This document shows positions 3,183 to 51,208 of a DNA stretch of 64,000 bases, piece by piece. A model generated the notes under the pieces. That model saw only the letters and a program-made list of their open reading frames with translations, was not told the origin of the DNA and made no database searches. The position numbers and the translations under genes were made by a program. Location of the stretch: positions 51,843-115,842 of the forward strand of contig JBGSSW010000004.1 of assembly GCA_041736805.1 (NCBI GenBank), given 5' to 3'. Numbering within the stretch: position 1 is the stretch's first letter; each line of letters opens with the position of its first letter. The DNA is from Minisyncoccia bacterium (lineage in GTDB: Bacteria; Patescibacteriota; Minisyncoccia; Phycocordibacterales; UBA918).

Positions 3183-6100
3183 ATGAAATTTCCGGGTATG
3201 TTTTGTATGCTTAAAAGACCTATCACGCTAACTTTAGTGTGGGCAATTTTTCTGCAGGTCTCAGGAGCGACTATAATTAGCGTTCTGCTTCTTACTCCAG
3301 AAAAAGCTGAAGCTGCTGCAAAAATAATAGAACCAACTCCAAGTACAAGTGCCGTCACCCATACACAGTCTGGAACTGGGATTGTGTTTGTGACACCAGA
3401 CGTTGGTTATAAGTTTCACGTCTTTGGTGCTGTTCCGGATTCAGGCAAGTGTGTATATCGTAAAACTACTGACGGTGGAATAAGCTGGGGGTCACAAGTA
3501 GTGGTTGACTCACAGACAGACTGTCAGGGGGTTTCAGTTTGGTATGATCGTTGGACCCCATCTGATACTGGAACAATAATTCATATTGCTACGTATGATA
3601 CAAGTGCAGACGAAATTTACTACAATAGTCTCGACACTACTTCTGATACTTTGCTGCTTGTCACTTCTACTAGTACTATGTTAAATCTTGTCACGGCATA
3701 CGCTGCTGGTACAAATAATGTTTCAATTACAAAAGCCACTAATGGAAACCTGTATATTAATATTGATGATGCTAATGGAACTTTTATTCGTACCTGTACA
3801 TCTACTTGCTCAATAGGTAGTAATTGGACCGCCGCTGGTACACCACCGCAGGGAAACGCCAATACCGCTAGCATCCTGATGCCTCTTTCAGGTGGGAGTG
3901 TTATGTTGGTAAACCGTAGTACCGGAGGAGTAGTGCGTTCCAGTATTTGGAATGGTGCTTCCTGGTCCGCATTTACTAATATTGATACTTCAGCAGTAGT
4001 AAACACGACCTATGATGTCGGTATGTCACTGACTCTTTCAACCAGTACAAATGATATCTACATGTCATATATTGCCGATAATAATGACTTTATCACTAGT
4101 GATCATGACTTAAGGACGGCTTTGTATAACGGCAGTAGTTGGTCGACATCTACAGCAGCAATACTGACTGATACTAGTGGTCGCGGACTACATCAGGTTA
4201 CAATGTCACGTGACGCAAGTACGGGTGATATTTATGCAGTTTACGCGGTACGGACAGATATTACTAATGCTGCCTCAGCCAATGTTTATTATGCTCGTTC
4301 GACCGACAACATGACTAGCTGGGAAAGTGAGGTAGGTCCAGTTAATACCGTCCCAGGAAATCTCTACGGTATCGACACTAACCCAATGTTTTACAGTAGA
4401 CTTTTTGTGGCTTGGTTTAATAATCTGGCTCTAGATGTCATCGGTGATAGTATTTTACCCACTCCTACCGATACTTTAGTTGCACTTGAACCTACGCCAC
4501 AAACCACCGCTTCAGGACATACGATAGCTGGAGCTGCAACTGTGTTTGTGACAGACCAAATTGGTTATCGTTTTCTACGTTTTGGGGCTGCTCCAGATAG
4601 CGGTAAATGTGTCTATCGTAAGACTCTGGACGGAGGTTTACACTGGAGTAGTCAGGTGGTGGTTGACGCACAGACTGACTGTTCGGGCTTGGCGGTTTGG
4701 TATGATAAATGGACACCGGGAGATACTGGCAGTTATATTCATATTGCGACCTACGATATAGGTAACGATGATATATTTTATAATCGCCTCGACACTGCTA
4801 ATGATTCATTGCTTCTAACTACTTCTACAACTACCATGCCGGCTACGGCCAGTGTTTTAGCAGTCGGAACAAACTATGTTGCCATCACTAAAGCAACTGA
4901 CGGAAAAGTATATGTAAATATTGATGATGCTAACGGTACGTTCTTACTTTCATGTGCAGCTACCTGTGATAATTCAAATAATTGGGCAGCTGTGGGTACT
5001 GCACCACAAGGAAATGCAGATAGCTGGAGTATCATGGCTCCATTATCAGGGGGAAACGTGATGCTTATTAACCGTTCGACTACCAATCAGATACGTTCTA
5101 GTATTTGGAATGGTTCAATTTGGTCTTCTTTTAATACAATCGACGCCGCTGCAGTCAGAAATACTGTTTACGACGTCGGTATGTCCGCTACTATAGATAT
5201 AAGCACCAATGACATTTATCTAGCATATGCCACAGACAATGATAATTTTACGACGGCAGACCACGATATAAAAACTGCTAAATATACTGGGGGAGCTTGG
5301 TCAGCTATGACTAATATCATAACTAATGACCCTGCCCGAGGTGTTCTTCAGGTAGCGATAGGGCGCGATCAAAATAATGGTGATATCTACACGGCCTATT
5401 CAATTCGTTCCCAAATTTCAACCACTACTTCCGCTAATGTCTTCTACTCACGATCAACTAATGGGATGACCAGTTGGGAAGCTGAAGAGGGCCCGATAGG
5501 ACGCGTTGAAGGTGATTATTATGGTTTGGATATGAATCCAATGTCATACGAAAGATTGTATGTTAGTTGGTTTGATAACGTGACTACGGTCAGAGACATT
5601 TATGGAAATACTCTGGCCGACATTGGACCCGATACAACCTTGAGCTCGCTAGGTACACAAAAAAGCGAGACTTTAGCTGGAGAAAATAACTTTTATGTCG
5701 GAGGTTCATTTATGTTAACGACCTTGGTGTCTAAAAACGTTAACACAATAATAATTGCTGAATCAGGGACAATTCAAGCTCGAAACAATATAAAAAATGT
5801 AAGTTTATATTACGACTTTGATACCTCGGCTCCCTATGACTGTGAAAGTGAGTCATATGGCGGAGGTGAAGCCCAGTTTGGGACAACTGTGGCAGGAGGT
5901 TTCTCTGGAGCTAACGGCGTCGCTTCATTTAGTACCTCTCCAGTCGGAATAACAGGAACAAAGAGTATGTGTATCTATCCTGTTTTCGATATCCAGTCCG
6001 GTGCCCAAGATGGAGACACGATTGAGATTTCCGTTCTAAACCCAGAGACCGACGTTTTGATTTCCGGAGTGTTTGAAGTATTTCCAGCTACTGAAGTAAG

Positions 6101-9100
6101 TATTCCTGGTACCACGACCATCGTTGATCCTCAGCTAACTCAGTCCGGTTTTCATTGGCGATTAGATAATGGCTCAGAAATAACAGCTTCATCTGCGACG
6201 GCGGGAGTTGAAAACACCAATTTAACAGCTTTGAAGATAGGAATTCCAAGGCGAGTTCGTCTCGATGTTTCGAATCAAGGTTCCACCACCTCTGTACCAG
6301 CCGCTTTTAGACTTGAGTACGGTGAAGCTGCTCCAACTTGTAACGATACAAGTTCCTGGAGTGTTGTCGGTGAACCAAGTTCAGACTGGATTATGTATGA
6401 CTCAAGTAATTTAACTGATGGTACAGACACAACTAATATTCTAGTTGCAAATGGAGGTGTAACTGACCTTGGAACGAACTTTATAGGTAGTAATGGGGGA
6501 GTCAGAGACGTAAATAATACTTTCGGAACAACCACATTAGATATAGATGATTTCGTTGAGCTAGAGTACTCAATCATGGCTTCTTCTTCGGTGGTAGAAG
6601 GTTCAACTTACTGTTTTAGAGTTTCCAGAAATGGCATTCCACTTGGTTCATATTTGGAATTTCCAAGAGTGACAATCGCGGCTGATGTGTTGGTGCAGGG
6701 TTATGGTACCCAAATAGCCACTACATCAGTTTTAGCAACTAATGTATATGCTGGAGGAGGAATCAGAATTGTAGAAAATAGTAGCAATCGTGATGTAACA
6801 AGCGTAAAGCTTTCTGAGTTTGGAACCATAGACAGTGCTACCAGTATTAAGAATCTAAAATTATTCTACGACCTTGATACCTCTGGACCGTATGACTGTG
6901 CTAGTGAATCGTACAGTGGGGGAGAAGCTCAGTACGGCTCTACAGTTAGTGATGGATTTAATGGAGTCGGCGAAACGGCTTCATTTACAGATGCAGTAAA
7001 TATATCGACAACAGAAACCCTTTGCTTATATGTGGTCTATGACGTCGGTGATTTGGCTCAAAATGGTCAGACTTTAGATATTGGGGTTAATTCTGGGTCG
7101 TCAGATGTGACTGTTACGGGAGTTGCAAGTGTCGGACCTTCAGGACTGATTAGTATATCAGGAGAAACAATTATCGAAGGGGCTATTTTATCACAAATAA
7201 ATTATCACTGGAGAAGTGACAATGGTACCCAATTAACTGCCTCGTCTGCTACCGCTGGAGTTGAAAATACGCCAATTGTGGATTTTTCTCAAAATTCTCC
7301 AATTCGTTTAAGATTTGCAGTTACAAACACCGGTCTTGCTTCTTCAGTACCAGCTCGTTTTCAACTTGAGTACTCTCCTAAAATCACTACTTGTGATATG
7401 GCCACTGTTTGGACAGATGTGAACAGTACGCTTGACGGTTGGGATATGTATAACTCGTCATATTTAACTAATGGGGAAACAACAACAAATATTGCTGTTG
7501 CTAGTGGAGGAGTTTCAAATGGTTCGGGGACATTTATCTCTAGCAATGGTGGAGTAAGGGACACTGAGTCGCTTTCCGCTACTACTTCTATTCCAGTAGG
7601 AGATTATCTTGATGTCGAATACAGTATTACTTCAACTGATCTTACTTCTTACAGTACTACTTACTGCTTTAGAGTATCTTCAAATGTTTCATCTGCCTTT
7701 GGTTCATATGTTCAATATGCTGAAATTACCACTGCCGCTAAAAGAGATTTTAAGATTCAAAGAGGCTCAGTTCAAGTGAGTGGGACTTCGGCCACAGTGG
7801 TCGCTGGAGTCGACTATACAGCTCCGGCTAGTACTTCGCTAGCCTTTGTTAGAATCACTAATTCCCATCATACAGGAGCGGGAAATTCAACAGCCTCAAC
7901 AAATCAAAACAGTGACGATGTGACAGCCTATATCTCAAATCCAGGCAACATTGCTACTAACTTTACTATTTCTCGTCCTAGTTCGGCCACGAGTAATACT
8001 CGCGTTGATTGGGAAATAATTGAATTTATCGGCAATTCTGGCACAGATAATGAAATGATTGTGCGTGGAGTTGGAACGGTTTCTTATACAACTACGTCCC
8101 TAGTGGCAACGGGTACAGTTTTATCAAACATTAGTAATAATAGTAAAGTGGTAGTTTTTGTCACTGGGGCTAGTGATAGAAATACTTCACGTAATTACTA
8201 TGCCGGATTAGTAACTTCAGCCTGGGATACTAATACAAATTCACCTGTCTTTACTCGAGGAGCCAATGGTTCAAGTATCGCTGATATAAGCTACGCAGTG
8301 GTAGAGTTTGTTGGACCAAATTGGAATGTCCAAAGAGTAGAACATACTTACATAGCATCTGGTGTAACTGAGACAGAATCAATTACAGCTGTAAATAGTC
8401 TAGCAAAAACTTTCCTTCATACACAAAAAAGAATGGGAGCCACGACTAACGTTGTTCACTATGGACATCAAGTATGGTTATCAAGTATAGGGGCTGTTTC
8501 ATTTCAGTTGGAGACTGGAGCCAGTGTAGCAGTCGGACAGACTTCAGTAGCCTGGATAATTGAAAATATCCAAGGTGGAATTGGGGCCATGAATATTCAA
8601 AGGTCTAATGGTAATACGACTGGTGGGACAGGACCGTTATCACTTTCTGTAGTGCTCTCTACCCCACTTGTAGCAGTAAATAATACTTCCATCATGGCAA
8701 ATACCAGCGGGGCTGGAGTAAATACTAGTTATCCTAGACCGATGGCGGGTTTTACTATCACTAGTACTTCCACCTATCAAATTTGGCGTAGTAATACTGG
8801 AACAACTTTAACTTACAGAGTCGAGCTAGTGGAATGGCCAGTAGCAGACTTAGCTATTCGGCAGAATTACTATCGCTTCTACGTCGATAATAATTTGCTA
8901 ACCCCTACGGACCCTTGGCCAGCCGGAGTTATTGATCTTGGTGAAAATACCTCCATTACTACTGCTGATGAACCACTTGGTAGTGGAGAACATTTAAGGA
9001 TAAGAATGAGTTTAAGAACTTCAAATGCAGCCATGCCCGCTGGTTTACAAAACTTCAAACTCCAGTATGCCCTAAGAAGTACTACTTGTTCGGCTGTTTC

Positions 9101-10508
9101 CGGAGGTAGTTGGGCAGATGTTGGTCCCGCTAGTAGTGGTAGTGTTTGGAGAGGTTATGCTGCAACTGGAACAACAGACGGAACCTCGCTTTCTATTGAT
9201 CCACCAACTGGGGGGGGCTTGCTGATTTCAGTTTCTGATCGAGCAGGATCGTTAGTGGAGGAAAATCCTTCTGCCGTCAATCCATATCCTGTGGCTGAAG
9301 GTGACAATATTGAATACGATTGGCATTTAGAACAAAACGGAGCTAATCCACAAAGCACTTATTGCTTTAGGGTTGTAAGAAGTGATAGTACTCCACTAGA
9401 AGGCTATAGTAACTATCCTCAAATTAGAACTGCCGGCTTCACTCCACTTTCAAAAAATTGGCGTTGGTACGATGATGCAGAAAATGAAACCCCATCTACA
9501 GGACTTGCCCTTGAAAATGTGGCCCCAATTGATATTGCTAACACTGATACTTTAGCTCTGCGCGTTAGCGTAAAAGAAAACAAGAATGCCCAAGGCGATA
9601 ACATTAAATTTAAGTTACAGTTTTCTGAAGATGTAACTTTTTCTAATCCAATTGATGTTGCTGCAACAAGCAGCTGTCAAGACCAATCTTTTTGGTGCTA
9701 TGTTGAAGGAGGAGGTGTAGATAATAATTATATAACAACTCAACTCCTTTCTGACGGAGATGGTTGCGTATCTAGTGTTGGAGCTGGTTGTGGACGACAT
9801 AATACAATTCCAGACTCATTAACTACACACACACATTTCGGTAGTGACACACAAGAGTATAGTTTTATGATTCGCCACGTTGCTGCTAGAGTCAATGCGG
9901 TATATTACTTCCGCCTCTACGATATAACTAACGATTCACCTGTGTATGTAGCCGTAGGTGAAACTTATCCATCGTTAGTAACAGAAGGACCCTTATTACA
10001 GTTGTCTTTGGCAGGCCTACCAGCTGGTACTACTACTGCAGGAGTTATGACGGATATTTCTACTACACCTACAGGGATTAACTTTGGAAATTTAAACTTG
10101 AATATAGAATATATTGCTGCTCATAGAGTCTCTGTTGAAACCAATGCCACAGAAGGATATCAAGTTTTAAATTTTGCTAGACAACAATTATTGAATTCAA
10201 ATGGAATTTCTATCCCTTCAGTTAGCGGCACAAATTTAATTCCCCTTAGTTGGTCTACTGCTTGTAACGCATCTTCAACCGGATGTGTAGGTTACCATTC
10301 CACTGATCCTACTTTAAGCAATGGATCGACTCGTTTTGCAGCTACAGACACCTATGCTGCACTTGAAACTAACCCAGCAGAGGTGATGTATAGTTCAATT
10401 CCATCTTCCGATACTCATGATATAGTTTACAGAATAAAGGTAGGTGAATTACAGGCAGCTGGTGATTATGAAACGGAAATAGTTTATCTAGCTGTACCTT
10501 CTTTTTAA
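3183..10508 (+). CDS. giant (2441 aa) secreted cell-surface protein with two tandem sialidase-like BNR/Asp-box beta-propeller modules plus further duplicated modules
   Basis: Single uninterrupted ORF with N-terminal signal/TM. Asp-box motifs TTDGGISW, TLDGGLHW, STDNMTSW, STNGMTSW. Large internal duplications visible in the translation. YCFRV motif occurs three times. Confidence 0.7.
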   Translation: MKFPGMFCMLKRPITLTLVWAIFLQVSGATIISVLLLTPEKAEAAAKIIEPTPSTSAVTHTQSGTGIVFVTPDVGYKFHVFGAVPDSGKCVYRKTTDGGISWGSQVVVDSQTDCQGVSVWYDRWTPSDTGTIIHIATYDTSADEIYYNSLDTTSDTLLLVTSTSTMLNLVTAYAAGTNNVSITKATNGNLYINIDDANGTFIRTCTSTCSIGSNWTAAGTPPQGNANTASILMPLSGGSVMLVNRSTGGVVRSSIWNGASWSAFTNIDTSAVVNTTYDVGMSLTLSTSTNDIYMSYIADNNDFITSDHDLRTALYNGSSWSTSTAAILTDTSGRGLHQVTMSRDASTGDIYAVYAVRTDITNAASANVYYARSTDNMTSWESEVGPVNTVPGNLYGIDTNPMFYSRLFVAWFNNLALDVIGDSILPTPTDTLVALEPTPQTTASGHTIAGAATVFVTDQIGYRFLRFGAAPDSGKCVYRKTLDGGLHWSSQVVVDAQTDCSGLAVWYDKWTPGDTGSYIHIATYDIGNDDIFYNRLDTANDSLLLTTSTTTMPATASVLAVGTNYVAITKATDGKVYVNIDDANGTFLLSCAATCDNSNNWAAVGTAPQGNADSWSIMAPLSGGNVMLINRSTTNQIRSSIWNGSIWSSFNTIDAAAVRNTVYDVGMSATIDISTNDIYLAYATDNDNFTTADHDIKTAKYTGGAWSAMTNIITNDPARGVLQVAIGRDQNNGDIYTAYSIRSQISTTTSANVFYSRSTNGMTSWEAEEGPIGRVEGDYYGLDMNPMSYERLYVSWFDNVTTVRDIYGNTLADIGPDTTLSSLGTQKSETLAGENNFYVGGSFMLTTLVSKNVNTIIIAESGTIQARNNIKNVSLYYDFDTSAPYDCESESYGGGEAQFGTTVAGGFSGANGVASFSTSPVGITGTKSMCIYPVFDIQSGAQDGDTIEISVLNPETDVLISGVFEVFPATEVSIPGTTTIVDPQLTQSGFHWRLDNGSEITASSATAGVENTNLTALKIGIPRRVRLDVSNQGSTTSVPAAFRLEYGEAAPTCNDTSSWSVVGEPSSDWIMYDSSNLTDGTDTTNILVANGGVTDLGTNFIGSNGGVRDVNNTFGTTTLDIDDFVELEYSIMASSSVVEGSTYCFRVSRNGIPLGSYLEFPRVTIAADVLVQGYGTQIATTSVLATNVYAGGGIRIVENSSNRDVTSVKLSEFGTIDSATSIKNLKLFYDLDTSGPYDCASESYSGGEAQYGSTVSDGFNGVGETASFTDAVNISTTETLCLYVVYDVGDLAQNGQTLDIGVNSGSSDVTVTGVASVGPSGLISISGETIIEGAILSQINYHWRSDNGTQLTASSATAGVENTPIVDFSQNSPIRLRFAVTNTGLASSVPARFQLEYSPKITTCDMATVWTDVNSTLDGWDMYNSSYLTNGETTTNIAVASGGVSNGSGTFISSNGGVRDTESLSATTSIPVGDYLDVEYSITSTDLTSYSTTYCFRVSSNVSSAFGSYVQYAEITTAAKRDFKIQRGSVQVSGTSATVVAGVDYTAPASTSLAFVRITNSHHTGAGNSTASTNQNSDDVTAYISNPGNIATNFTISRPSSATSNTRVDWEIIEFIGNSGTDNEMIVRGVGTVSYTTTSLVATGTVLSNISNNSKVVVFVTGASDRNTSRNYYAGLVTSAWDTNTNSPVFTRGANGSSIADISYAVVEFVGPNWNVQRVEHTYIASGVTETESITAVNSLAKTFLHTQKRMGATTNVVHYGHQVWLSSIGAVSFQLETGASVAVGQTSVAWIIENIQGGIGAMNIQRSNGNTTGGTGPLSLSVVLSTPLVAVNNTSIMANTSGAGVNTSYPRPMAGFTITSTSTYQIWRSNTGTTLTYRVELVEWPVADLAIRQNYYRFYVDNNLLTPTDPWPAGVIDLGENTSITTADEPLGSGEHLRIRMSLRTSNAAMPAGLQNFKLQYALRSTTCSAVSGGSWADVGPASSGSVWRGYAATGTTDGTSLSIDPPTGGGLLISVSDRAGSLVEENPSAVNPYPVAEGDNIEYDWHLEQNGANPQSTYCFRVVRSDSTPLEGYSNYPQIRTAGFTPLSKNWRWYDDAENETPSTGLALENVAPIDIANTDTLALRVSVKENKNAQGDNIKFKLQFSEDVTFSNPIDVAATSSCQDQSFWCYVEGGGVDNNYITTQLLSDGDGCVSSVGAGCGRHNTIPDSLTTHTHFGSDTQEYSFMIRHVAARVNAVYYFRLYDITNDSPVYVAVGETYPSLVTEGPLLQLSLAGLPAGTTTAGVMTDISTTPTGINFGNLNLNIEYIAAHRVSVETNATEGYQVLNFARQQLLNSNGISIPSVSGTNLIPLSWSTACNASSTGCVGYHSTDPTLSNGSTRFAATDTYAALETNPAEVMYSSIPSSDTHDIVYRIKVGELQAAGDYETEIVYLAVPSF
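3336..4470 (+). repeat. intragenic repeat A1 (~375 aa module with two Asp-boxes) of the giant surface gene
   Basis: Residues ~52-430 (TPSTSAVTHTQSGTGIVFVTPDVGYKFHVFGAVPDSGKCVYRKTTDGGISW...) are paralogous to residues ~431-800. Boundaries approximate. Confidence 0.6.
4473..5580 (+). repeat. intragenic repeat A2 (second copy of the Asp-box module)
   Basis: TPQTTASGHTIAGAATVFVTDQIGYRFLRFGAAPDSGKCVYRKTLDGGLHW... parallels A1 along its whole length. Boundaries approximate. Confidence 0.6.
5790..6700 (+). repeat. intragenic repeat B1 (module starting NVSLYYDFDTSAPYDCESESYGGGEAQFG, ending YCFRVS)
   Basis: Paralogous to B2, ~352 aa downstream. Boundaries approximate. Confidence 0.5.
6846..7760 (+). 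repeat. intragenic repeat B2 (IKNLKLFYDLDTSGPYDCASESYSGGEAQYG ... YCFRVS)
   Basis: Same motif order as B1 (FYDxDTSxPYDC, HWRxDNG, ATAGVENT, YCFRVS). Boundaries approximate. Confidence 0.5.
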
Positions 10509-31734: not shown

Positions 31735-32343
31735 ATGGAAGGATCCAGACATGAACGAGCTGTAATTGTAGCAATATCATATGTAATTGGTTTTACAGCT
31801 GCTTTTTTACTGTACGCTGCACATTCTGATTTCAGTAATGAAGACAACGGTTATTTAAATGAAAGTGCAAGTTTGCCGGCTGCAGTTATTCAGTCAGACT
31901 TCAGCACAGGTAATACTGAAATTTCTAGCGCTATTGGAAAAGTTAACTACACAGATGGCAAACTTGAGTATCTAAGTAACACAGGAACTAGACTTTTGTC
32001 GTTTAACCCAGACATAACTGGTTTTTCAAAATTGAAAAATTTGGAACAACAAGGCACCCATACTAGAGACATTTTCTATTCAGTCTCAGACGACAATAAG
32101 CAAGTTTTTTTCTGCGAAAATGGCACAAGGGAGATCGACTACTGTAAGGGTTATATTTACAGCGTTGAAGAAGATTTAATTTATCCAATTACTGAAAATG
32201 GGACTTTTCCTATTTTTACTAGTGAAGAAGCTTCAGAAGCTATATGGTCTTCAGGTCAGTTATTAATTAAAAACTCCTATTCTGCAAATAAGCTCGAACC
32301 GTGGCTATTCATTACGGAGAAGTCAGCGTTTGACTTGCAATAA
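31735..32343 (+). CDS. hypothetical membrane-anchored protein
   Basis: N-terminal TM (VIVAISYVIGFTAAFLLYAA). TATAAT at 31723-31728 immediately upstream, so the transcript is possibly leaderless. Confidence 0.4.
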   Translation: MEGSRHERAVIVAISYVIGFTAAFLLYAAHSDFSNEDNGYLNESASLPAAVIQSDFSTGNTEISSAIGKVNYTDGKLEYLSNTGTRLLSFNPDITGFSKLKNLEQQGTHTRDIFYSVSDDNKQVFFCENGTREIDYCKGYIYSVEEDLIYPITENGTFPIFTSEEASEAIWSSGQLLIKNSYSANKLEPWLFITEKSAFDLQ

Positions 32344-32386
32344 ATATGTCTGTATTATAGGCAAAATTAAAGTCTTACTTTAATTT

Positions 32387-32462
32387 GGGCCAGTAGCTCA
32401 CTTGGTAGAGCGCCTCATTTGCACTGAGGAGGCAGGGAGTTCGAATCTTCTCTGGTCCACCA
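32387..32462 (+). tRNA. tRNA-Ala (anticodon UGC), 76 nt with encoded CCA
   Basis: Cloverleaf folded by hand. Acceptor GGGCCAG/CTGGTCC with the G3:U70 alanine identity pair. D-arm GCTC-ACTTGGTA-GAGC. Anticodon loop TTTGCAC. T-loop TTCGAAT. 3' CCA present. Confidence 0.85.
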
Positions 32463-32557
32463 TCTAATTTACTTGTAGCAGCTCGACTAGTTCAGTTAAT
32501 TTCAATTTTGAAAGCTTGAGCGTAAGTAAAATTTAAGTTATTATTCTTCGTCCCTTA

Positions 32558-32630
32558 GGGCCCTTAGCTCATCCGGTAGAGCGCTTCCATGGCATGGAAG
32601 AGGTGAGCGGTTCAAGTCCGCTAGGGTCCA
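32558..32630 (+). tRNA. tRNA-Ala (anticodon GGC), 73 nt, CCA not encoded
   Basis: Acceptor GGGCCCT/AGGGTCC with G3:U70. Anticodon stem CTTCC/GGAAG, loop ATGGCAT (anticodon GGC). T-arm AGCGG-TTCAAGT-CCGCT. Discriminator A. Confidence 0.8.
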
Positions 32631-32632
32631 CA
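32616..32632 (+). repeat. 17-nt direct repeat copy 1 (gtccgctagggtccaca), the 3' end of tRNA-Ala(GGC); att-core-like
   Basis: Identical 17-mer recurs at 32800-32816. Confidence 0.6.
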
Positions 32633-32657
32633 AAAAACATCCTTTTTTTGTGGACCC
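32624..32657 (+). terminator. hairpin terminator overlapping the 3' end of tRNA-Ala(GGC)
   Basis: GGGTCCACAAAAAA-catcc-TTTTTTTGTGGACCC perfect 14-bp stem. A second perfect hairpin CAAAGCAAC-attc-GTTGCTTTG follows at 32662-32683. Confidence 0.5.
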
Positions 32658-32799
32658 TAGACAAAGCAACATTCGTTGCTTTGGTCGGACTTGAACCACC
32701 GGAACGATGTGAGTTTACGAACGAGTGAGGTGTGTCCCGCGGCACCTGCTAGATTGTGAGCGAATGCAAAACAATATAGCTTGGTGACCGTCAGGATCT

Positions 32800-32816
32800 G
32801 TCCGCTAGGGTCCACA
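32800..32816 (+). repeat. 17-nt direct repeat copy 2 (gtccgctagggtccaca), a duplicated tRNA-Ala 3' end with no tRNA body upstream
   Basis: Exact copy of the tRNA 3' end, 184 bp downstream of copy 1. Upstream sequence (cgtcaggatct) does not form a T-arm. Confidence 0.6.
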
Positions 32817-32887
32817 TATTAACATACTAGATATAGTATGTTATCTCATAACTCGAACAATTCCGTTCATCAGAAAGGAGACCTGCG

Positions 32888-33262
32888 ATGGTCGCTCTCA
32901 AACGTCAGAACATCCCCGCTGGCAAGTTCCGTGTCCTCGGCTGCGACCTGTTCGATCACTCGGTCGACGTCGTCGAAGACTGCGACACCAAGGACGAGGC
33001 CTTCAAGATCGCCGACGACCACAACCGTCAGCGCACGGGGTCGATGTCCGACGTGTACTACGTCTACAACGACAAAGGCAGCTATCACCGTGGCGAGGAA
33101 GCGATCAAGAATGCCAAGGGCGAGAGACCACCGTCAGCGTCAGCCCGTAAACGCAAGCGTCGGCATTGCCGGCACGAGACCCCAGAGATAACATCAAGGG
33201 GTCTCATTTCGTTTATAATTCTACTTTTCACTCAAACTCTTTGCAAAGTAGGACATCCTTGA
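32888..33262 (+). CDS. small GC-rich gene of foreign composition, hypothetical protein; 3' end uncertain (possibly a shorter product or frameshifted)
   Basis: Strong SD (AAAGGAG) 8 nt upstream of the ATG. Pronounced GC3 codon bias in this frame (gtc, ctc, ggc, aag, ttc, gac) for the first ~80 codons, fading after ~33120. Competing overlapping frames look like GC-rich noise. Confidence 0.4.
   Translation: MVALKRQNIPAGKFRVLGCDLFDHSVDVVEDCDTKDEAFKIADDHNRQRTGSMSDVYYVYNDKGSYHRGEEAIKNAKGERPPSASARKRKRRHCRHETPEITSRGLISFIILLFTQTLCKVGHP
33176..33213 (+). terminator. hairpin (GAGACCCC...GGGGTCTC) at the end of the first GC-rich cassette
   Basis: 8-bp GC stem with a 14-nt loop. A weak T-rich tail follows. 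Confidence 0.35.
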
Positions 33263-33327
33263 TACGTCACCCAAGACTTCATTAAATATCCCCTAAATTG
33301 GTTCTGTAAATTTCCACTATAGTCCAC
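33242..33327 (+). repeat. 86-bp direct repeat DR1, containing a promoter-like TTGATA-17-TTAAAT and ending in a degenerate tRNA-Ala 3'-end-like ctatagtccac
   Basis: About 92% identical to DR2 at 33816-33901. Each copy sits just after a cassette terminator. Confidence 0.6.
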
Positions 33328-33398
33328 GAGTACAGAAAGAGCGCCTTTGTTGTTCGTGGACTATAAGCAAGCAAACTACCTTGCTTGCTTGAGGCCTT

Positions 33399-33427
33399 TT
33401 CGTGTAGATTGACAAGTCACACTATTC
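33399..33427 (+). promoter_or_regulatory. putative sigma-70 promoter TTGACA-17-TAGTAT upstream of the 33478 gene
   Basis: Consensus -35 TTGACA at 33399-33404, 17-nt spacer, -10 TAGTAT at 33422-33427. SD AGGAG precedes the ATG at 33478. Confidence 0.4.
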
Positions 33428-33477
33428 ATGCTAGTATTTTGAATGAAATTCTTGTTATTCCACAACCAGGAGATGTC

Positions 33478-33747
33478 ATGGCGATTTTGAAATGTCGTTA
33501 TTGCAAAGAAGGTGTGCTTACGGGCGCGCGTCATCACTGCAAGCAAATGCAACTTGCAAAACAACCATCGGCTGTTGTCGATGAGAGTGAAGGAAGCATC
33601 TTTCTCTCATTCGCGGTCGCAGCGGCAACAGACAATTGGGCAATTGGGACGCTTGTTGGAGGCAATCTCATTGGTGGAATTGTCGGCGACGCAGTAGTAG
33701 GAAACAACGACTCATGTAACGACGGTGACTCTGGTAGCGACGACTGA
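33478..33747 (+). CDS. small protein (89 aa) with N-terminal Cys/His cluster (CRYC...HHC), glycine-zipper hydrophobic segment and acidic tail; hypothetical (bacteriocin- or membrane-peptide-like)
   Basis: ATG preceded by AGGAG. Sequence MAILKCRYCKEGVLTGARHHCKQ...FLSFAVAAATDNWAIGTLVGGNLIGGIVGDAVVGNNDSCNDGDSGSDD. The ORF track's 33385 start is an upstream extension lacking an SD. Confidence 0.5.
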   Translation: MAILKCRYCKEGVLTGARHHCKQMQLAKQPSAVVDESEGSIFLSFAVAAATDNWAIGTLVGGNLIGGIVGDAVVGNNDSCNDGDSGSDD

Positions 33748-33754
33748 GCGCAAC

Positions 33755-33805
33755 TAGCCCCACGAGGAAGTCCCACGACTTCACAACTCGTGGGGCTTCT
33801 TCTTT
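33755..33805 (+). terminator. rho-independent terminator after the 33478 gene
   Basis: GCCCCACGAG...CTCGTGGGGC 10-bp stem enclosing an inner GAAGTC/GACTTC stem, followed by TTCTTCTTTTC. Confidence 0.6.
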
Positions 33806-33815
33806 TCTAAAATTA

Positions 33816-33901
33816 ACTGCAAAGTAGGACAAGATTGATACGTCACCCAAAACTTCATTAAATACCCCCTACATTGGTTCTGTAAATTTCCCCTATAGTC
33901 C
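33816..33901 (+). repeat. 86-bp direct repeat DR2 (copy of DR1)
   Basis: tgcaaagtaggacaAGATtgatacgtcacccaaAacttcattaaataCcccctaCattggttctgtaaatttccCctatagtccac. About 7 mismatches to DR1. Confidence 0.6.
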
Positions 33902-34022
33902 ACAAACAAATTAAAATCAATAGAGCACAAGACCAAGTTTGTGAAATACTGCCAATGGACTTGTAAAATATAGATAAAGGTATATATTTAGACTAAATAT
34001 GAAAAGGAGACGTAGAGCAACC

Positions 34023-34142
34023 ATGTTTATAATGATAGCTATCATTGCTGCTGTTTGCTTTATTCTCAGGTCTGATTACTTCAGCCACATCACTTCGAAT
34101 CAGATTATCAATGATTCTAGAGCAAGTTTGCTTGCTGAATAA
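34023..34142 (+). CDS. tiny hydrophobic peptide (39 aa) downstream of DR2; hypothetical
   Basis: ATG with AAGGAG 12 nt upstream. MFIMIAIIAAVCFILRSDYFSHITSNQIINDSRASLLAE. Below the ORF-track length cut-off. Converges on the HAD gene stop 18 bp away. Confidence 0.3.
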   Translation: MFIMIAIIAAVCFILRSDYFSHITSNQIINDSRASLLAE

Positions 34143-34160
34143 AGAGCCAGGTCTTTAAAA

Positions 34161-34856
34161 CTATTGTTTAAACATTTTAACTAACTTTCGGTAAGTGTCT
34201 AAATAGTCTACCACTGGTACCGTTTCAATTACGCCAATCACAGCTTCATCATTACCTCCCGGGTATAGTCCATCTCCAAAATAAATACAATTATTTTTAT
34301 CCCATTTCATTAGATCAATGAGCTTTTGAACATTGGTTCCTTTATGTCTGTCTTTATGGATGTAATCAAAACTTGTAGAACCTCCGATTTTAACTATTAA
34401 CTCATCAGATTCAAATGGTATTGTCTTAATTAAATTCTCACGGATCCTTCTGTCCGGGTCGTAAGTGTTTTTTATTTCGTGCGGAGCAGTATTTCCAATT
34501 GGGCTAAAAGTTATCTGTGCACCTCTATCCTCAATCGGATTCCATTCTTGGTTTATATCATGTTCAATTAGATTTGATATTTTTTTAATGTGATTCAAAA
34601 TTTCTAGTCGATGATTATTGTCTAAAGGAATATTCCACAATTCTTTATCATCCAAATCAGTTGCATGATTTCCATTTTGGCCAAGTGTATATGAACGCAA
34701 ATAATTACTTTGTGCTCCAATTTTCACCACTTCTTGTCCAGAAACTATAACAATGTCCTGAGAAAAGCTATTTAGTAGATCAAACATGTCGTCAAGGATT
34801 AGTTGCCTGGCCGGAGCTATCGTCTGATCCATATCAAAAAAGAGATGTTTATACAT
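34161..34856 (-). CDS. HAD-IIB hydrolase, phosphomannomutase (PMM)-like
   Basis: DxDxT motif FFDMDQTI. Mid-region IVSGQEVVKI and C-terminal IYFGDGLYPGGNDEAV resemble the eukaryotic-type PMM family (FFGDKTxxGGNDxE). Confidence 0.55.
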   Translation of the reverse strand: MYKHLFFDMDQTIAPARQLILDDMFDLLNSFSQDIVIVSGQEVVKIGAQSNYLRSYTLGQNGNHATDLDDKELWNIPLDNNHRLEILNHIKKISNLIEHDINQEWNPIEDRGAQITFSPIGNTAPHEIKNTYDPDRRIRENLIKTIPFESDELIVKIGGSTSFDYIHKDRHKGTNVQKLIDLMKWDKNNCIYFGDGLYPGGNDEAVIGVIETVPVVDYLDTYRKLVKMFKQ

Positions 34857-48877: not shown

Positions 48878-51208
48878 ATGTCACTGGCAGAACAAGAACC
48901 AGACGGCTCTTTAGGCGAAGCCGTAAGCAAGGAGGAGCAAGTGGCCGGTAATGGCTGGGCGGCTTTTTCCGCCTTTTCCAAGAGTCCTGAAAACACCCGC
49001 CCAGCCTTCACCCCCACCCACGTCACCGCCAAACAAGACTTCTCACCCCTGACCAAGCTCCTGATTCTTTTAATTCCGCTATTACTTCTAGTTGGTTATC
49101 AAAGTTATTCCCAAGTTTTTGGTTCTACACTTATCGGTTATTTTTCTCCCAAACCATCAATAAATCTTGAGTCAGGATTAATTGCACATTGGACCTTTGA
49201 CGGACTAGATATGACCACTGCAACATCGTCAGATGTAAGTGGTAATGGATATAACTTAGCGTTAGACGGTAATCCAAAATTATCAATTGGTAAAATTGGA
49301 CAAGCTATAGAACTTGATGGTGCTAGTGATTCTCTTAACTTGCTAAATAATAGTAGCCTTAATTTAGATTCAGGCACCAGTGACTTCACTCTTTCTGGAT
49401 GGTTTAAGCGCAACAGTTTTTCAACACGAGACGTAATATTAGCAAAGAGAGCCAACTCAGGTACTGGTGAATCTGGATATATGCTTGAAATTTCAGGGTC
49501 AGATTATCTTATTTTTCGAGCTTCCGACGGTGTTGATGATTATACCTTAAATTCTTTGACTAGAATTGAAAATTCAGACTGGCATCATTTCACAATCGTC
49601 TGGGGGGACAATACTATTGGTACCACCATGTACATCGATGGACGATCTAATGCCCCCACAGCTGCTGCGGGATCACTTGGATATATTGGTAATATAAATT
49701 TTACAAATTACTTCCGTTTAGGAGTTTCTTCCAACGGTTCTGACCCTTTTGACGGCAAATTAGATGATGTCCGTATCTATGACCACTCACTTTCTTCTGA
49801 AGAAGTCGCTGCTTTGTATGCTATGACTAAGGAAACGAAGATCAATACCACCCAAACTCCCACTAATCTAGAAACCGGCCTCGTCGGCCACTGGACCTTT
49901 GATGGCCCTGACATGACCACAGCTACTGCGACCGATGTGAGTGGAACTGGAAATGACGGCACACTAATAAGTTCACCAACTAAAATCATTGGAAAAACTG
50001 GCCAGGCAATAGAGTTTAATGGAATTGATAATTATATTTTTATCGAGGATAATTCAAGTCTTGATATTACAAATGAATTAACAATTTCAGCCTGGGTTAA
50101 CAAACAAATTATTACTACTTGCGGTGACTATGATGGAGTTATCGGCAAAGGCTACCAAGGAGATCCCTCAGCAAACTATGCACTTGGTATATTTAACAAC
50201 TGTGATGATGAGCATATTATTTTTTATTATAATAATAATTCATCAGAACACTCAATTCGAGGTAACACAACACTTCAACTTAATACTTGGAATCTTCTTA
50301 CTGTCACATATAATGATGCCAGCAACAACATCAGTCTTTATGTTAACGGGGTTCTTGAAAGTAAGACTGTAATAGCAGGTGCTCCCGAAACAAATTCTTT
50401 AGAAACTAATTTGCATGGGGTAACAATTGGGGCAAAAGATGTTGGTTATTGGTTTATTCCAGCAAAAATTGATGACGTTCGTGTTTACAATAGAGCTATT
50501 TCAGCGGATGAAGTGCAAAAACTCTATAACCTTGGTGAAGGCACTAAATTCAACGTCACTCCGATCAACCGCTCACCACTTTCAGAAGGTCTAGTCGGCC
50601 ACTGGACTTTTGATGGCCTAGATATGACCACAGCTACTGCGACTGATGTGAGTGGAAACGGAAACAACGCCACTCTTCTTGGCAACAGTGAAAAAGCAAT
50701 TGGTAAAATGGGGCAAGGAATTAGTTTGGATGGCACCAACAGTACATATATCACTACCAACAGTGGTTCTGGTGTTATTGACGCATCACAAGATATTACA
50801 ATTGGAGTTTGGGTTAAACCTAGAGTCATAAACCAGTACCAGGGAATTATTTCTAAGTCAGCAGCCTGTGATGAGCCAACATCAAAATACCTACTTGAAT
50901 TTCTAGATGGCGGGGCCACGTTTTGGATGGGAGGGTCTAGTACCGGCTATCGTGGCTCGTTAATATCACTTAATGAATGGTCGCATATCGCAGTTACGAA
51001 CAATGCAAATGGTTTTGCTATATATAAAAATGGCGTATTAGAGAAATCTGGCTCAGCTTTACCGGCGCCAACTTCCTCAACTGCTGACTGGACTTTTGGA
51101 AATTGTGGTGGACTTTATTATTCAGATATGAATATGGACGATGTCCGCATCTATAACCGCGCCCTATCAGCAACCGAAGTGGATCAGCTTTATAATCAAG
51201 GTCGGTAG
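48878..51208 (+). CDS. membrane-anchored protein with three tandem LamG-like (concanavalin A-like lectin/glucanase) domains and a GC-rich N-terminal cytoplasmic extension
   Basis: Repeats GLxxHWTFDGxDMTTATxxDVSGNGxxxxLxGxxxxxIGKxGQxIxxDG ... DDVRIYxxxLSxxEVxxLY occur three times. TM at ~LTKLLILLIPLLLLVGY. The first ~180 nt are GC-rich, unlike the rest. Confidence 0.6.
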   Translation: MSLAEQEPDGSLGEAVSKEEQVAGNGWAAFSAFSKSPENTRPAFTPTHVTAKQDFSPLTKLLILLIPLLLLVGYQSYSQVFGSTLIGYFSPKPSINLESGLIAHWTFDGLDMTTATSSDVSGNGYNLALDGNPKLSIGKIGQAIELDGASDSLNLLNNSSLNLDSGTSDFTLSGWFKRNSFSTRDVILAKRANSGTGESGYMLEISGSDYLIFRASDGVDDYTLNSLTRIENSDWHHFTIVWGDNTIGTTMYIDGRSNAPTAAAGSLGYIGNINFTNYFRLGVSSNGSDPFDGKLDDVRIYDHSLSSEEVAALYAMTKETKINTTQTPTNLETGLVGHWTFDGPDMTTATATDVSGTGNDGTLISSPTKIIGKTGQAIEFNGIDNYIFIEDNSSLDITNELTISAWVNKQIITTCGDYDGVIGKGYQGDPSANYALGIFNNCDDEHIIFYYNNNSSEHSIRGNTTLQLNTWNLLTVTYNDASNNISLYVNGVLESKTVIAGAPETNSLETNLHGVTIGAKDVGYWFIPAKIDDVRVYNRAISADEVQKLYNLGEGTKFNVTPINRSPLSEGLVGHWTFDGLDMTTATATDVSGNGNNATLLGNSEKAIGKMGQGISLDGTNSTYITTNSGSGVIDASQDITIGVWVKPRVINQYQGIISKSAACDEPTSKYLLEFLDGGATFWMGGSSTGYRGSLISLNEWSHIAVTNNANGFAIYKNGVLEKSGSALPAPTSSTADWTFGNCGGLYYSDMNMDDVRIYNRALSATEVDQLYNQGR

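Follow-up and report, generated by a model that had tools for sequence, protein, structure and literature searches.

The locus described here raises the question of what a lone gene for a protein of 89 amino acids (aa) does for its host when it is carried on a small, mobile-looking piece of DNA near a tRNA gene. The gene lies at 33478-33747 of a stretch of 64,000 nucleotides (nt), referred to below as the window, from contig JBGSSW010000004.1 (positions 51,843 to 115,842 of the forward strand; assembly GCA_041736805.1) of a Minisyncoccia bacterium (Patescibacteriota). A sequence-only reading had proposed a toxin, a bacteriocin or a membrane effector, an interpretation that was partly supported. 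The gene is real, it sits on a cassette with horizontal mobility, and it encodes a member of a family with a characteristic architecture. With a probability of roughly 0.4, it is a constitutive, moron-like gene on a non-autonomous, tRNA-targeted cassette, whose product would be a cytoplasmic zinc-knuckle protein that self-associates through a glycine zipper on the inner side of the membrane and acts as a modulator of the cell envelope.

The open reading frame (ORF) of the 89-aa protein reads on the plus strand from an ATG at 33478 to a TGA at 33745-33747, and its product has the sequence MAILKCRYCKEGVLTGARHHCKQMQLAKQPSAVVDESEGSIFLSFAVAAATDNWAIGTLVGGNLIGGIVGDAVVGNNDSCNDGDSGSDD. The gene and its expression signals are as follows:

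33409-33437, plus strand: sigma-70-type promoter TTGACA-17-TAGTAT with an upstream TG (extended -10), 10 of 12 positions in a consensus scan
33468-33472, plus strand: Shine-Dalgarno sequence AGGAG, read from the sequence, 5 nt upstream of the ATG
33478-33747, plus strand: 89-aa ORF, with a zinc knuckle (nt 33493-33540), a glycine zipper (nt 33598-33699) and an acidic tail (nt 33700-33744)
33756-33806, plus strand: intrinsic terminator, with an 11-base-pair (bp) outer stem AGCCCCACGAG/CTCGTGGGGCT, an inner hairpin and then a T-rich run

The mechanical list of ORFs contained an alternative frame of 120 aa, starting from a TTG at 33385. This version was rejected in favour of the ATG at 33478, a credible start because it is preceded by AGGAG, because the -10 element (33432-33437) falls downstream of the TTG, and because homologs start with M-x-x-K-C; the N-terminus of the 89-aa protein itself reads M-A-I-L-K-C-R-Y-C. 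A chance reading frame was rejected as well, given the 65 homologous clusters retrieved. Compared with the copy of the cassette at another locus (L001), the ORF showed 0 indels and 94.8% nucleotide identity, versus roughly 86% in the remainder of the cassette. The ratio of nonsynonymous to synonymous substitution rates was about 0.5, calculated from only 14 substitutions, and the replacements between both proteins were conservative, sparing the metal ligands and the zipper glycines. The 89-aa ORF is a genuine coding gene. The strong promoter and terminator seen in the sequence-only reading were confirmed at the sequence level too, the terminator hairpin (33756-33797) with its T-run reaching -29 kcal/mol (z = -6.3 versus shuffled sequence). 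The promoter of the L001 copy is weaker (TTGATA-17-TACTGT).

The motif description given in that reading, namely a CxxC...HxC head followed by a glycine-zipper helix, was correct. The zinc head is C6-x2-C9-x9-H19-H20-C21, and the zipper consists of G57/G61/G62/G66/G70 in a zipper domain covering residues 41-74; the string GTLVGGNLIGGIVGDAVVGN, quoted in the reading, is found in the protein. The tail (residues 75-89) is Asp/Ser/Gly-rich and indeed acidic, although 'poly-acidic' overstates a stretch with 5 Asp in 14 residues. An exhaustive HMMER scan of 1.84 billion representatives yielded 65 cluster representatives at E ≤ 1e-3, 8 of them at E ≤ 1e-10; nearly all matched proteins were 62-180 aa long and most aligned across almost the full query. 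Word-indexed searches with the 89-aa protein returned almost nothing, the sole close homolog being P0001 (90% identical), located on three short NCBI contigs. Among 54 knuckle-bearing members, C9 was invariant and C6, H19, C21, S44, T51, G57, G61, G62, G66 and G70 were at least 90% conserved, so that the zinc-head and zipper motifs are far beyond chance. The N-terminal knuckle was present in 63 of 92 family members. The family architecture starts with M..K-C-x2-C-x9-H-x-C and a short basic linker, continues with an acidic DDGDFF/L-x-S entry and the segment A-x-A-A-T-D-N/S-W/A...G-x3-GG-x3-G-x3-G-D, and ends in a hypervariable Asp/Ser/Gly tail, with an aromatic last residue in many members. As judged from these alignments, the 89-aa protein is one of a group of small acidic proteins of phages and bacteria that form an unnamed family and combine a putative zinc knuckle with a glycine zipper. 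Two further matches, P0008 (4510 aa, matching the query via 25 stretches) and P0030 (a tandem-repeat protein of 269 aa, via 4), were left out of the alignments as non-family, their similarity probably arising from composition or repeats.

Pfam, NCBIfam, annotated PHROGs, PADLOC and PDB do not contain this family. With the 89-aa query alone, searches of Pfam and PHROGs gave no substantial match. When 30 family members were searched against Pfam, NCBIfam, PHROGs and PADLOC and with a PDB profile search, all matches were sub-threshold or scattered and none was accepted; the sub-threshold ones involved glycine-zipper and zinc-ribbon models. Pfam glycine-zipper families matched 1-3 of these 30 members at E 0.037-0.11 (Gly-zipper_Omp being best, at 0.037); PF13488, PF13441 and PF05433 did not reach their gathering thresholds, and the 89-aa query had no Pfam glycine-zipper match at E ≤ 1. 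PADLOC gave no matches of substance. The ssl2009 family (E 0.0014 in 2 members) was not accepted, and neither were the matches to PtuB and to a type I S-subunit, each found with a single member. Tblastn against cultured phage and plasmid collections gave no match, to which the low-complexity filter may have contributed. An IMG/VR scan with a narrow alignment of the family found one jumbo viral contig.

The second part of the answer concerns the DNA that carries the gene. The 89-aa ORF is the single gene of the last unit in an array that starts at the 3' end of tRNA-Ala(GGC) and runs, in order, through a 184-bp unit, a 512-bp cassette and a 576-bp cassette into host DNA:

32558-32631, plus strand: tRNA-Ala(GGC) (ARAGORN; Rfam tRNA, 58 bits), of which the 3' end ..GTCCGCTAGGGTCCAC is the attachment (att) site
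32632-32815, no strand: 184-bp tRNA-proximal unit without ORF, with a hairpin at its start and, at its end, 16 nt that repeat the tRNA 3' end exactly
32816-33327, plus strand: cassette 1, 512 bp, guanine-plus-cytosine (GC) fraction 0.50, with an ORF at 32888-33262, ending in copy 1 of a 97-nt repeat
33231-33327, plus strand: 97-nt repeat copy 1, the element-side att arm, of which the end TATAGTCCAC mimics the tRNA 3' end
33318-33365, plus strand: junction inverted repeat TATAGTCCACGA ... TCGTGGACTATA, a hairpin across the boundary between cassettes 1 and 2
33328-33903, plus strand: cassette 2, 576 bp, GC 0.46, third unit of the array, with the 89-aa ORF as its single gene
33807-33903, plus strand: 97-nt repeat copy 2, right end of the array (attR side), followed by host sequence

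As in tRNA-targeted elements, insertion occurred at the tRNA 3' end and the distal boundary carries a direct repeat of that end. Indeed, the last 6-16 nt of the tRNA recur at 32815, 33327 and 33903, and GTCCAC ends at 32631, 32815, 33327 and 33903. The two 97-nt copies are 88% identical, and no further copy occurs within the window. The cassettes have a GC fraction of 0.46-0.50, against about 0.355 in the host flanks. The left boundary of cassette 2 is fixed by locus L002, where this cassette begins immediately after the 3' end of tRNA-Ala(GGC), giving the junction ..GGGTCCAC|GAATACAG...; its right boundary is fixed by the divergence of the window and L001 after GTCCAC. In L001, the cassette stands behind a DUF305 gene plus another copy of the 97-nt repeat. 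The junction hairpin, of which L001 and L002 carry an equivalent, longer version, probably insulates the cassette or terminates upstream transcription. The mobile appearance noted in the sequence-only reading thus held, given the direct repeats and the same cassette in the two settings L001 and L002.

The window has 43 ORFs of 150 aa or more, and in the 30 of them that were searched no recombinase family was found, nor was a recombinase found in the array or in the precomputed annotation of the downstream 10 kilobases (kb). The cassettes are therefore non-autonomous, resembling cis-mobilizable elements (CIMEs). The 97-nt repeat was absent from the IMG/VR scan and no parent phage was found. An integron attC site was rejected for the repeat, as it has no internal hairpin. 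Rfam detected two tRNAs and nothing else in 32300-34200.

Several smaller observations concern the array and its surroundings. The hairpin opening the 184-bp unit (32621-32660) has a 17-18-bp stem in which the tRNA 3' end takes part. The unit has no Rfam match; it contains a T-arm/acceptor-like stretch on the minus strand at about 32683-32700, and its segment 32727-32796 is 89-93% identical to stretches of L006 (4094-4147) and L013 (5472-5540). The cassette 1 ORF (32888-33262) is GC-rich and has no Pfam match; a shorter homolog follows the copper cassette, described below, in L006 (4164-4433). In the window copy, the frame stays open across a terminator-like hairpin of its own (33176-33205) and enters the 97-nt repeat, so that it may have lost its stop codon or gained an extension at the C-terminus. 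The two tRNAs, tRNA-Ala(UGC) (32387-32462) and tRNA-Ala(GGC) (32558-32631), stand in tandem and both end in GTCCAC, with insertions only at GGC; in L006 and L007, tRNA-Ala(UGC) is on the opposite strand. To the right of the array (33941-34142), a strongly hydrophobic ORF of 39-47 aa (MFIMIAIIAAVCFIL...) comes with a GGAG ribosome-binding site as well as two promoter-like sites (33941-33988); its form is more toxin-like or type-I-like than that of the 89-aa protein.

A scan of species-representative genomes and JGI metagenomes for the core of the repeat retrieved eight loci, three being genome loci titled Patescibacteria/Paceibacterota metagenome-assembled genomes (MAGs) or uncultured bacterium and the other five coming from metagenomes. 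In the four loci with a recognisable tRNA, the repeat lay about 1.6 kb downstream of tRNA-Ala(GGC); L013 had only the 5' half of this tRNA, and L014-L016 had none in the fetched stretch. The DNA between tRNA and repeat was usually of a copper type, i.e. a 1.67-kb cassette bounded by tRNA-Ala(GGC) and the 97-nt repeat and encoding a CsoR-like repressor, a membrane protein of 182 aa and a DUF305 protein. Its positions are:

Copper cassette: L006, 2227-3892; L007, 2590-4255; L008, 405-2070; L017, 1015-2680; also in L001 and L014-L016

Among four MAGs, this cassette is 90-99.8% identical, without detectable similarity in the flanking DNA, which indicates that a copper-type resistance cassette is spreading between Patescibacteria. 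Directly after ..TATAGTCCAC, all eight loci carry a strong hairpin, in seven distinct, host-dependent sequences; from its sequence, this hairpin is read as the displaced native terminator of the tRNA. The placements in L001 and L002, the identity of the copper cassettes, the terminators and the foreign GC fraction together show that the units are horizontally mobile, site-specific cassettes. As for conservation of the 89-aa ORF among copies of the island, it is kept in the other copies of its own cassette (L001-L003) and absent from most arrays with the 97-nt repeat. In L013 (950-3160), a D-Ala-D-Ala ligase (Ddl, 369 aa) and a protein of 234 aa lie between the tRNA 5' half, which ARAGORN does not call as an intact tRNA-Ala(GGC), and the repeat; this unit may belong to the same system, as a cassette that modifies the cell wall.

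The company of the copper cassette raises the idea of a metal-handling accessory protein, with the Cys/His head and the Asp-rich tail both binding metal. The L001 cassette is indeed directly behind the CsoR/DUF305 cassette, and Cys2-His-Cys ligands with an Asp/Ser tail would suit such a role. However, no copper cassette accompanies the 89-aa cassette in the window or in L002, the family contexts elsewhere are not metal-related, and the Cys-Cys-His-Cys (CCHC) ligands are spaced as in a structural zinc knuckle, making a metal-handling role very improbable.

A more ambitious view of the array is that the 97-nt-repeat units form an undescribed, integron-like gene-capture system of Patescibacteria, served by a recombinase in trans and carrying a phage-derived zinc-knuckle/glycine-zipper envelope remodeller. 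If true, that recombinase would shuffle cassettes of 0.5-1.7 kb, all with a promoter and a terminator of their own, into the arrays at tRNA-Ala(GGC), and the 89-aa protein would block phage or DNA entry or tune lipid-II-linked synthesis in minimal-genome cells. Taken as a whole, this view is speculative and unlikely.

Gene contexts of homologs were compared in twelve lineages, and no neighbour was universal:

Phage-like, six lineages (L011; the P0070 contig; L020; L021-23; L024-25; L029-30): small replication, nucleotide-metabolism or early-type ORFs
GT4-linked chromosomal subfamily (L018, L019): homolog directly downstream of a GT4 glycosyltransferase, followed in L019 by a Mur ligase and a penicillin-binding protein
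Chromosomal cell-wall cluster (L026-28, three samples): homolog between mraY/tRNA_edit and ftsW-murG
Chromosomal (L009): homolog between PHO4 and DUF815, near yajC-secDF
Chromosomal (L010): homolog among metabolic genes

The phage-like contigs include those of L020 (340 kb, from IMG/VR), L021-23 (211 kb) and L024-25 (169 kb), and the neighbours in these contexts comprised ThyX, RtcB, dCMP deaminase, PNKP-ligase, exonuclease and methyltransferase. There was no endolysin or spanin among the precomputed Pfam matches near phage-like homologs, most neighbours being without match and L020 having been read as an ORF list only. On the chromosomal side, enzymes acting on lipid-linked precursors at the cytoplasmic face recur, a suggestive but statistically weak hint of a link with the envelope, to which the yajC-secDF neighbourhood of L009 was added. 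Concerning the GT4-linked subfamily, its members share a conserved C-terminal TPGDSxxSY on two independent contigs (L018, 3-1673; L019, 5467-8285). The database start of P0040 was miscalled, and an in-frame upstream extension brings back the CxxC...HHC knuckle.

The physical properties of the protein bear on whether it acts in, at or away from a membrane. Its net charge is -5 and its isoelectric point (pI) 4.67, in line with a family having a median pI of 4.42 and a median net charge of -7, in which only 3 of 92 members are net positive. No signal peptide, lipobox, double-glycine leader or Sec leader was found in the 89-aa protein. The zipper segment is marginally hydrophobic (best Kyte-Doolittle 19-mer 1.56; Hessa apparent free energy sum +5.8 kcal/mol), which fits a hairpin or monotopic association better than a membrane span. 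Four members have a true transmembrane helix at the N-terminus, replacing or preceding the knuckle (Kyte-Doolittle 2.2-3.0). Basic residues follow this helix in P0021, P0029 and P0066, which according to the positive-inside rule places the zipper domain on the cytoplasmic side; in P0052 an acidic stretch follows, so that this member is uninformative on topology. The Cys/His zinc knuckle, as a sequence feature, likewise points to a cytoplasmic location.

These properties leave little room for a secreted class II-type bacteriocin or microcin, to which the Gly-rich hydrophobic core bears a superficial likeness known from general knowledge of such peptides. The leader is missing, the protein is anionic where a cationic peptide would be expected, its N-terminal Cys/His knuckle is conserved, and neither the 576-bp unit nor the 12 homolog contexts contain a transporter, a C39 peptidase or an immunity gene. 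The bacteriocin claim of the sequence-only reading was accordingly rejected, and such a product is hardly credible. Its membrane-effector idea fared better, in that association with a membrane through the glycine zipper is plausible; a holin or pinholin was discarded, since there is no strongly hydrophobic transmembrane domain (1.56 versus 2.2-3.0 in the true helices of the family) and no endolysin or lysis cassette was seen here or among the annotated neighbours in the phage-like contexts.

The toxin claim requires a closer look. It would imply a membrane-permeabilising toxin or abortive-infection effector that turns on its own cell, the oligomerised zipper forming a membrane pore, much as the glycine-zipper toxins TelE, EsxX and CdzC/D act from outside or inside. 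In its favour, the family keeps the GxxxG/GxxxGxxxG pattern, the gene occurs on a mobile cassette and in phages, and a glycine zipper is needed for the toxicity of TelE (PMC10434224) and EsxX (PMC12744356) and is a hallmark of CdzC/D, a contact-dependent bacteriocin pair (PMC5380434). However, the gene stands alone behind a near-consensus promoter, the cassette contains no immunity or antitoxin gene, and no minus-strand promoter, such as the antisense RNA of a type I toxin-antitoxin pair would need, was found in a consensus scan of 33328-33806, although a weak or non-sigma-70 promoter could escape such a scan. In addition, the hydrophobicity is marginal, the family is acidic, PADLOC offered no substantial match, and some members reside in core cell-wall gene clusters of small genomes. 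The conserved zipper and the mobile carriage on which the claim was built thus stand, but a toxin is disfavoured and must be considered distinctly unlikely.

Structure prediction was less informative for the zipper than for the knuckle. Two AlphaFold2 runs (with 30 and 54 sequences) gave a mean predicted local distance difference test (pLDDT) score of about 60 each. The knuckle was modelled with moderate confidence as a beta-hairpin (3-5 / 12-14, pLDDT about 74), which together with four conserved Cys/His ligands corresponds to a generic CCHC zinc ribbon or knuckle. The zipper was modelled as short helices at low confidence (pLDDT about 50-55), as expected if this part needs partners or lipid. 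Foldseek against PDB gave non-significant matches only, namely LysW (3vpb_E; E 5.7, probability 0.06) and a PHD finger (E 8.8), and these were not used as evidence.

The low confidence for the zipper would also suit a soluble, acidic zinc-finger adaptor or mimic, whose knuckle would attach it to a protein or nucleic acid partner and whose flexible tail would serve as an interaction motif or decoy; for phages and cassettes, such a protein could be an anti-defence or host-takeover factor. Several family features agree with this, as the tails are strongly acidic and of low complexity, with recurrent C-terminal aromatics (many end in GDLFD, GGLF or SW), in a logic comparable to that of the tails of single-stranded DNA-binding protein or the ribosomal stalk, or to that of the carrier LysW, which likewise joins a zinc ribbon to an acidic tail and is the non-significant fold match mentioned above. 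Moreover, phage copies lie among early or replication genes. Yet the hydrophobic zipper segment is the most conserved part of the family and the tail is hypervariable in length and sequence, the window protein has no terminal aromatic residue, membrane-anchored variants exist, and no ArgX/LysX-like neighbour is present. An adaptor is hence a doubtful explanation. A LysW-type amino-group carrier in the strict sense was rejected, considering a tail different from the EDWGE type, the lack of ArgX/LysX neighbours and the Foldseek E of 5.7.

According to the preferred reading, that of an envelope modulator at the inner membrane face, the 89-aa gene would be a constitutively transcribed, single-gene accessory unit on the 576-bp cassette. 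This cassette would have entered the 3' end of tRNA-Ala(GGC) by site-specific recombination, performed by a recombinase encoded elsewhere, and its excised circular form would show the junction ..CCCCTATAGTCCAC|GAGTACAGAAAG... The product would remain intracellular, with zinc bound in the cytoplasm by its N-terminal CCHC knuckle. The conserved FFxSxAxxAATDNW-xxG-xxxGG-xxxG-xxxGD segment would fold into a short helical hairpin packed through small residues, self-associating at, or shallowly within, the cytoplasmic leaflet. This domain would need partners or lipid to fold, and the acidic tail would remain disordered and exposed. The effect would be modulation of the envelope rather than killing, either through lipid-linked cell-wall or glycan machinery, or through phage or DNA entry (superinfection exclusion).

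Several points weigh against this reading. Acidic residues flank the zipper segment on both sides, an uncommon arrangement in membrane segments that would also suit a soluble oligomer. Genuine transmembrane helices are usually predicted confidently by AlphaFold2, and the zipper is not. Binding of zinc by the CCHC knuckle is deduced from the ligand pattern. Context associations are few and heterogeneous, those of L009 and L010 being unrelated to the cell wall. Finally, no family member has an annotated or experimental function; all homologs are annotated as 'hypothetical', without the housekeeping annotation that would have spoken against the sequence-only reading, although some are inside core cell-wall gene clusters.

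Beyond the array, the window encodes three large surface-type proteins (315-1070, 3183-10508 and 48878-51208), including a cohesin/dockerin-domain protein and a giant ORF of 2441 aa; a surface-type ORF of 776 aa has three internal repeats spaced roughly 700 nt apart (49175, 49877, 50588). Such large surface-type proteins are typical of episymbiotic Patescibacteria.

The significance of the locus is twofold. On the one hand, the family is compact, conserved and unnamed, and its CCHC knuckle, 35-residue glycine-zipper domain and acidic tail make it an addition to domain databases. Being common to jumbo-phage-like genomes, bacterial cell-wall gene clusters and a mobile cassette of Patescibacteria, it is a candidate small modulator of the envelope. 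On the other hand, ultra-small genomes of Patescibacteria gain ready-to-express cassettes of 0.5-1.7 kb at one tRNA gene, and near-identical cassettes in otherwise unrelated MAGs offer a handle on horizontal gene transfer in a lineage in which this process is poorly understood.

Compared with known systems, the protein recombines familiar motifs. The Pfam glycine-zipper families (Gly-zipper_Omp, PF13488; Gly-zipper_YMGG, PF13441; Rick_17kDa_Anti, PF05433; SlyB/OsmB-type) have a similar short hydrophobic G-x3-G-x3-G segment, and their segments and the zipper of the 89-aa protein are alike predicted as tightly packed, self-associating helices at a membrane. However, those families are mostly exported lipoproteins, whereas the 89-aa family lacks a signal peptide and lipobox, has a CCHC knuckle and an acidic tail, and apparently faces the cytoplasm. 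TelE (PMC10434224), EsxX (PMC12744356) and CdzC/CdzD (PMC5380434) also share a glycine-zipper core and a location on accessory or mobile DNA, but these proteins are secreted by type VII or type I secretion systems, have cognate immunity and are toxic, whereas the 89-aa protein has no secretion domain, partner gene or homology to them. Phage morons are similar in being single small genes with their own promoter and terminator and a deviant GC fraction, and homologs of the 89-aa protein do occur in phage genomes; in contrast to morons, the 89-aa gene is not in a prophage but on an att-bounded cassette at a tRNA gene.

The cassette system is more novel than the protein. To our knowledge and in the literature searched, tRNA-anchored arrays of miniature cassettes have not been described in Patescibacteria. 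CIMEs (PMC5704250, PMC6323972), tycheposons and satellites (bioRxiv 10.1101/2020.12.28.424599) and the ssrA islands of Dehalococcoides (PMC3146451) resemble these arrays in their tandem accretion at the 3' end of a tRNA or transfer-messenger RNA gene, in direct repeats that copy the tRNA end, in adaptive cargo (copper resistance and Ddl in the present case) and in some units lacking a recombinase. The window cassettes differ from them in their far smaller size of 0.5-1.7 kb with 1-3 genes, a conserved 97-nt arm, their own promoters, their hosts among the Patescibacteria, and a cognate recombinase not having been found. Similarly, integron cassettes are very small, mostly single-gene units in tandem, and the same cassette occurs in different arrays and in different order. 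In contrast to these, the repeat in the window has no attC palindrome, the cassettes are not promoterless, a tRNA gene serves as the anchor in place of attI, and no IntI was present in the 30 window ORFs searched. The array at tRNA-Ala(GGC) thus extends existing concepts of tRNA-targeted and cassette-based gene acquisition without overturning them.

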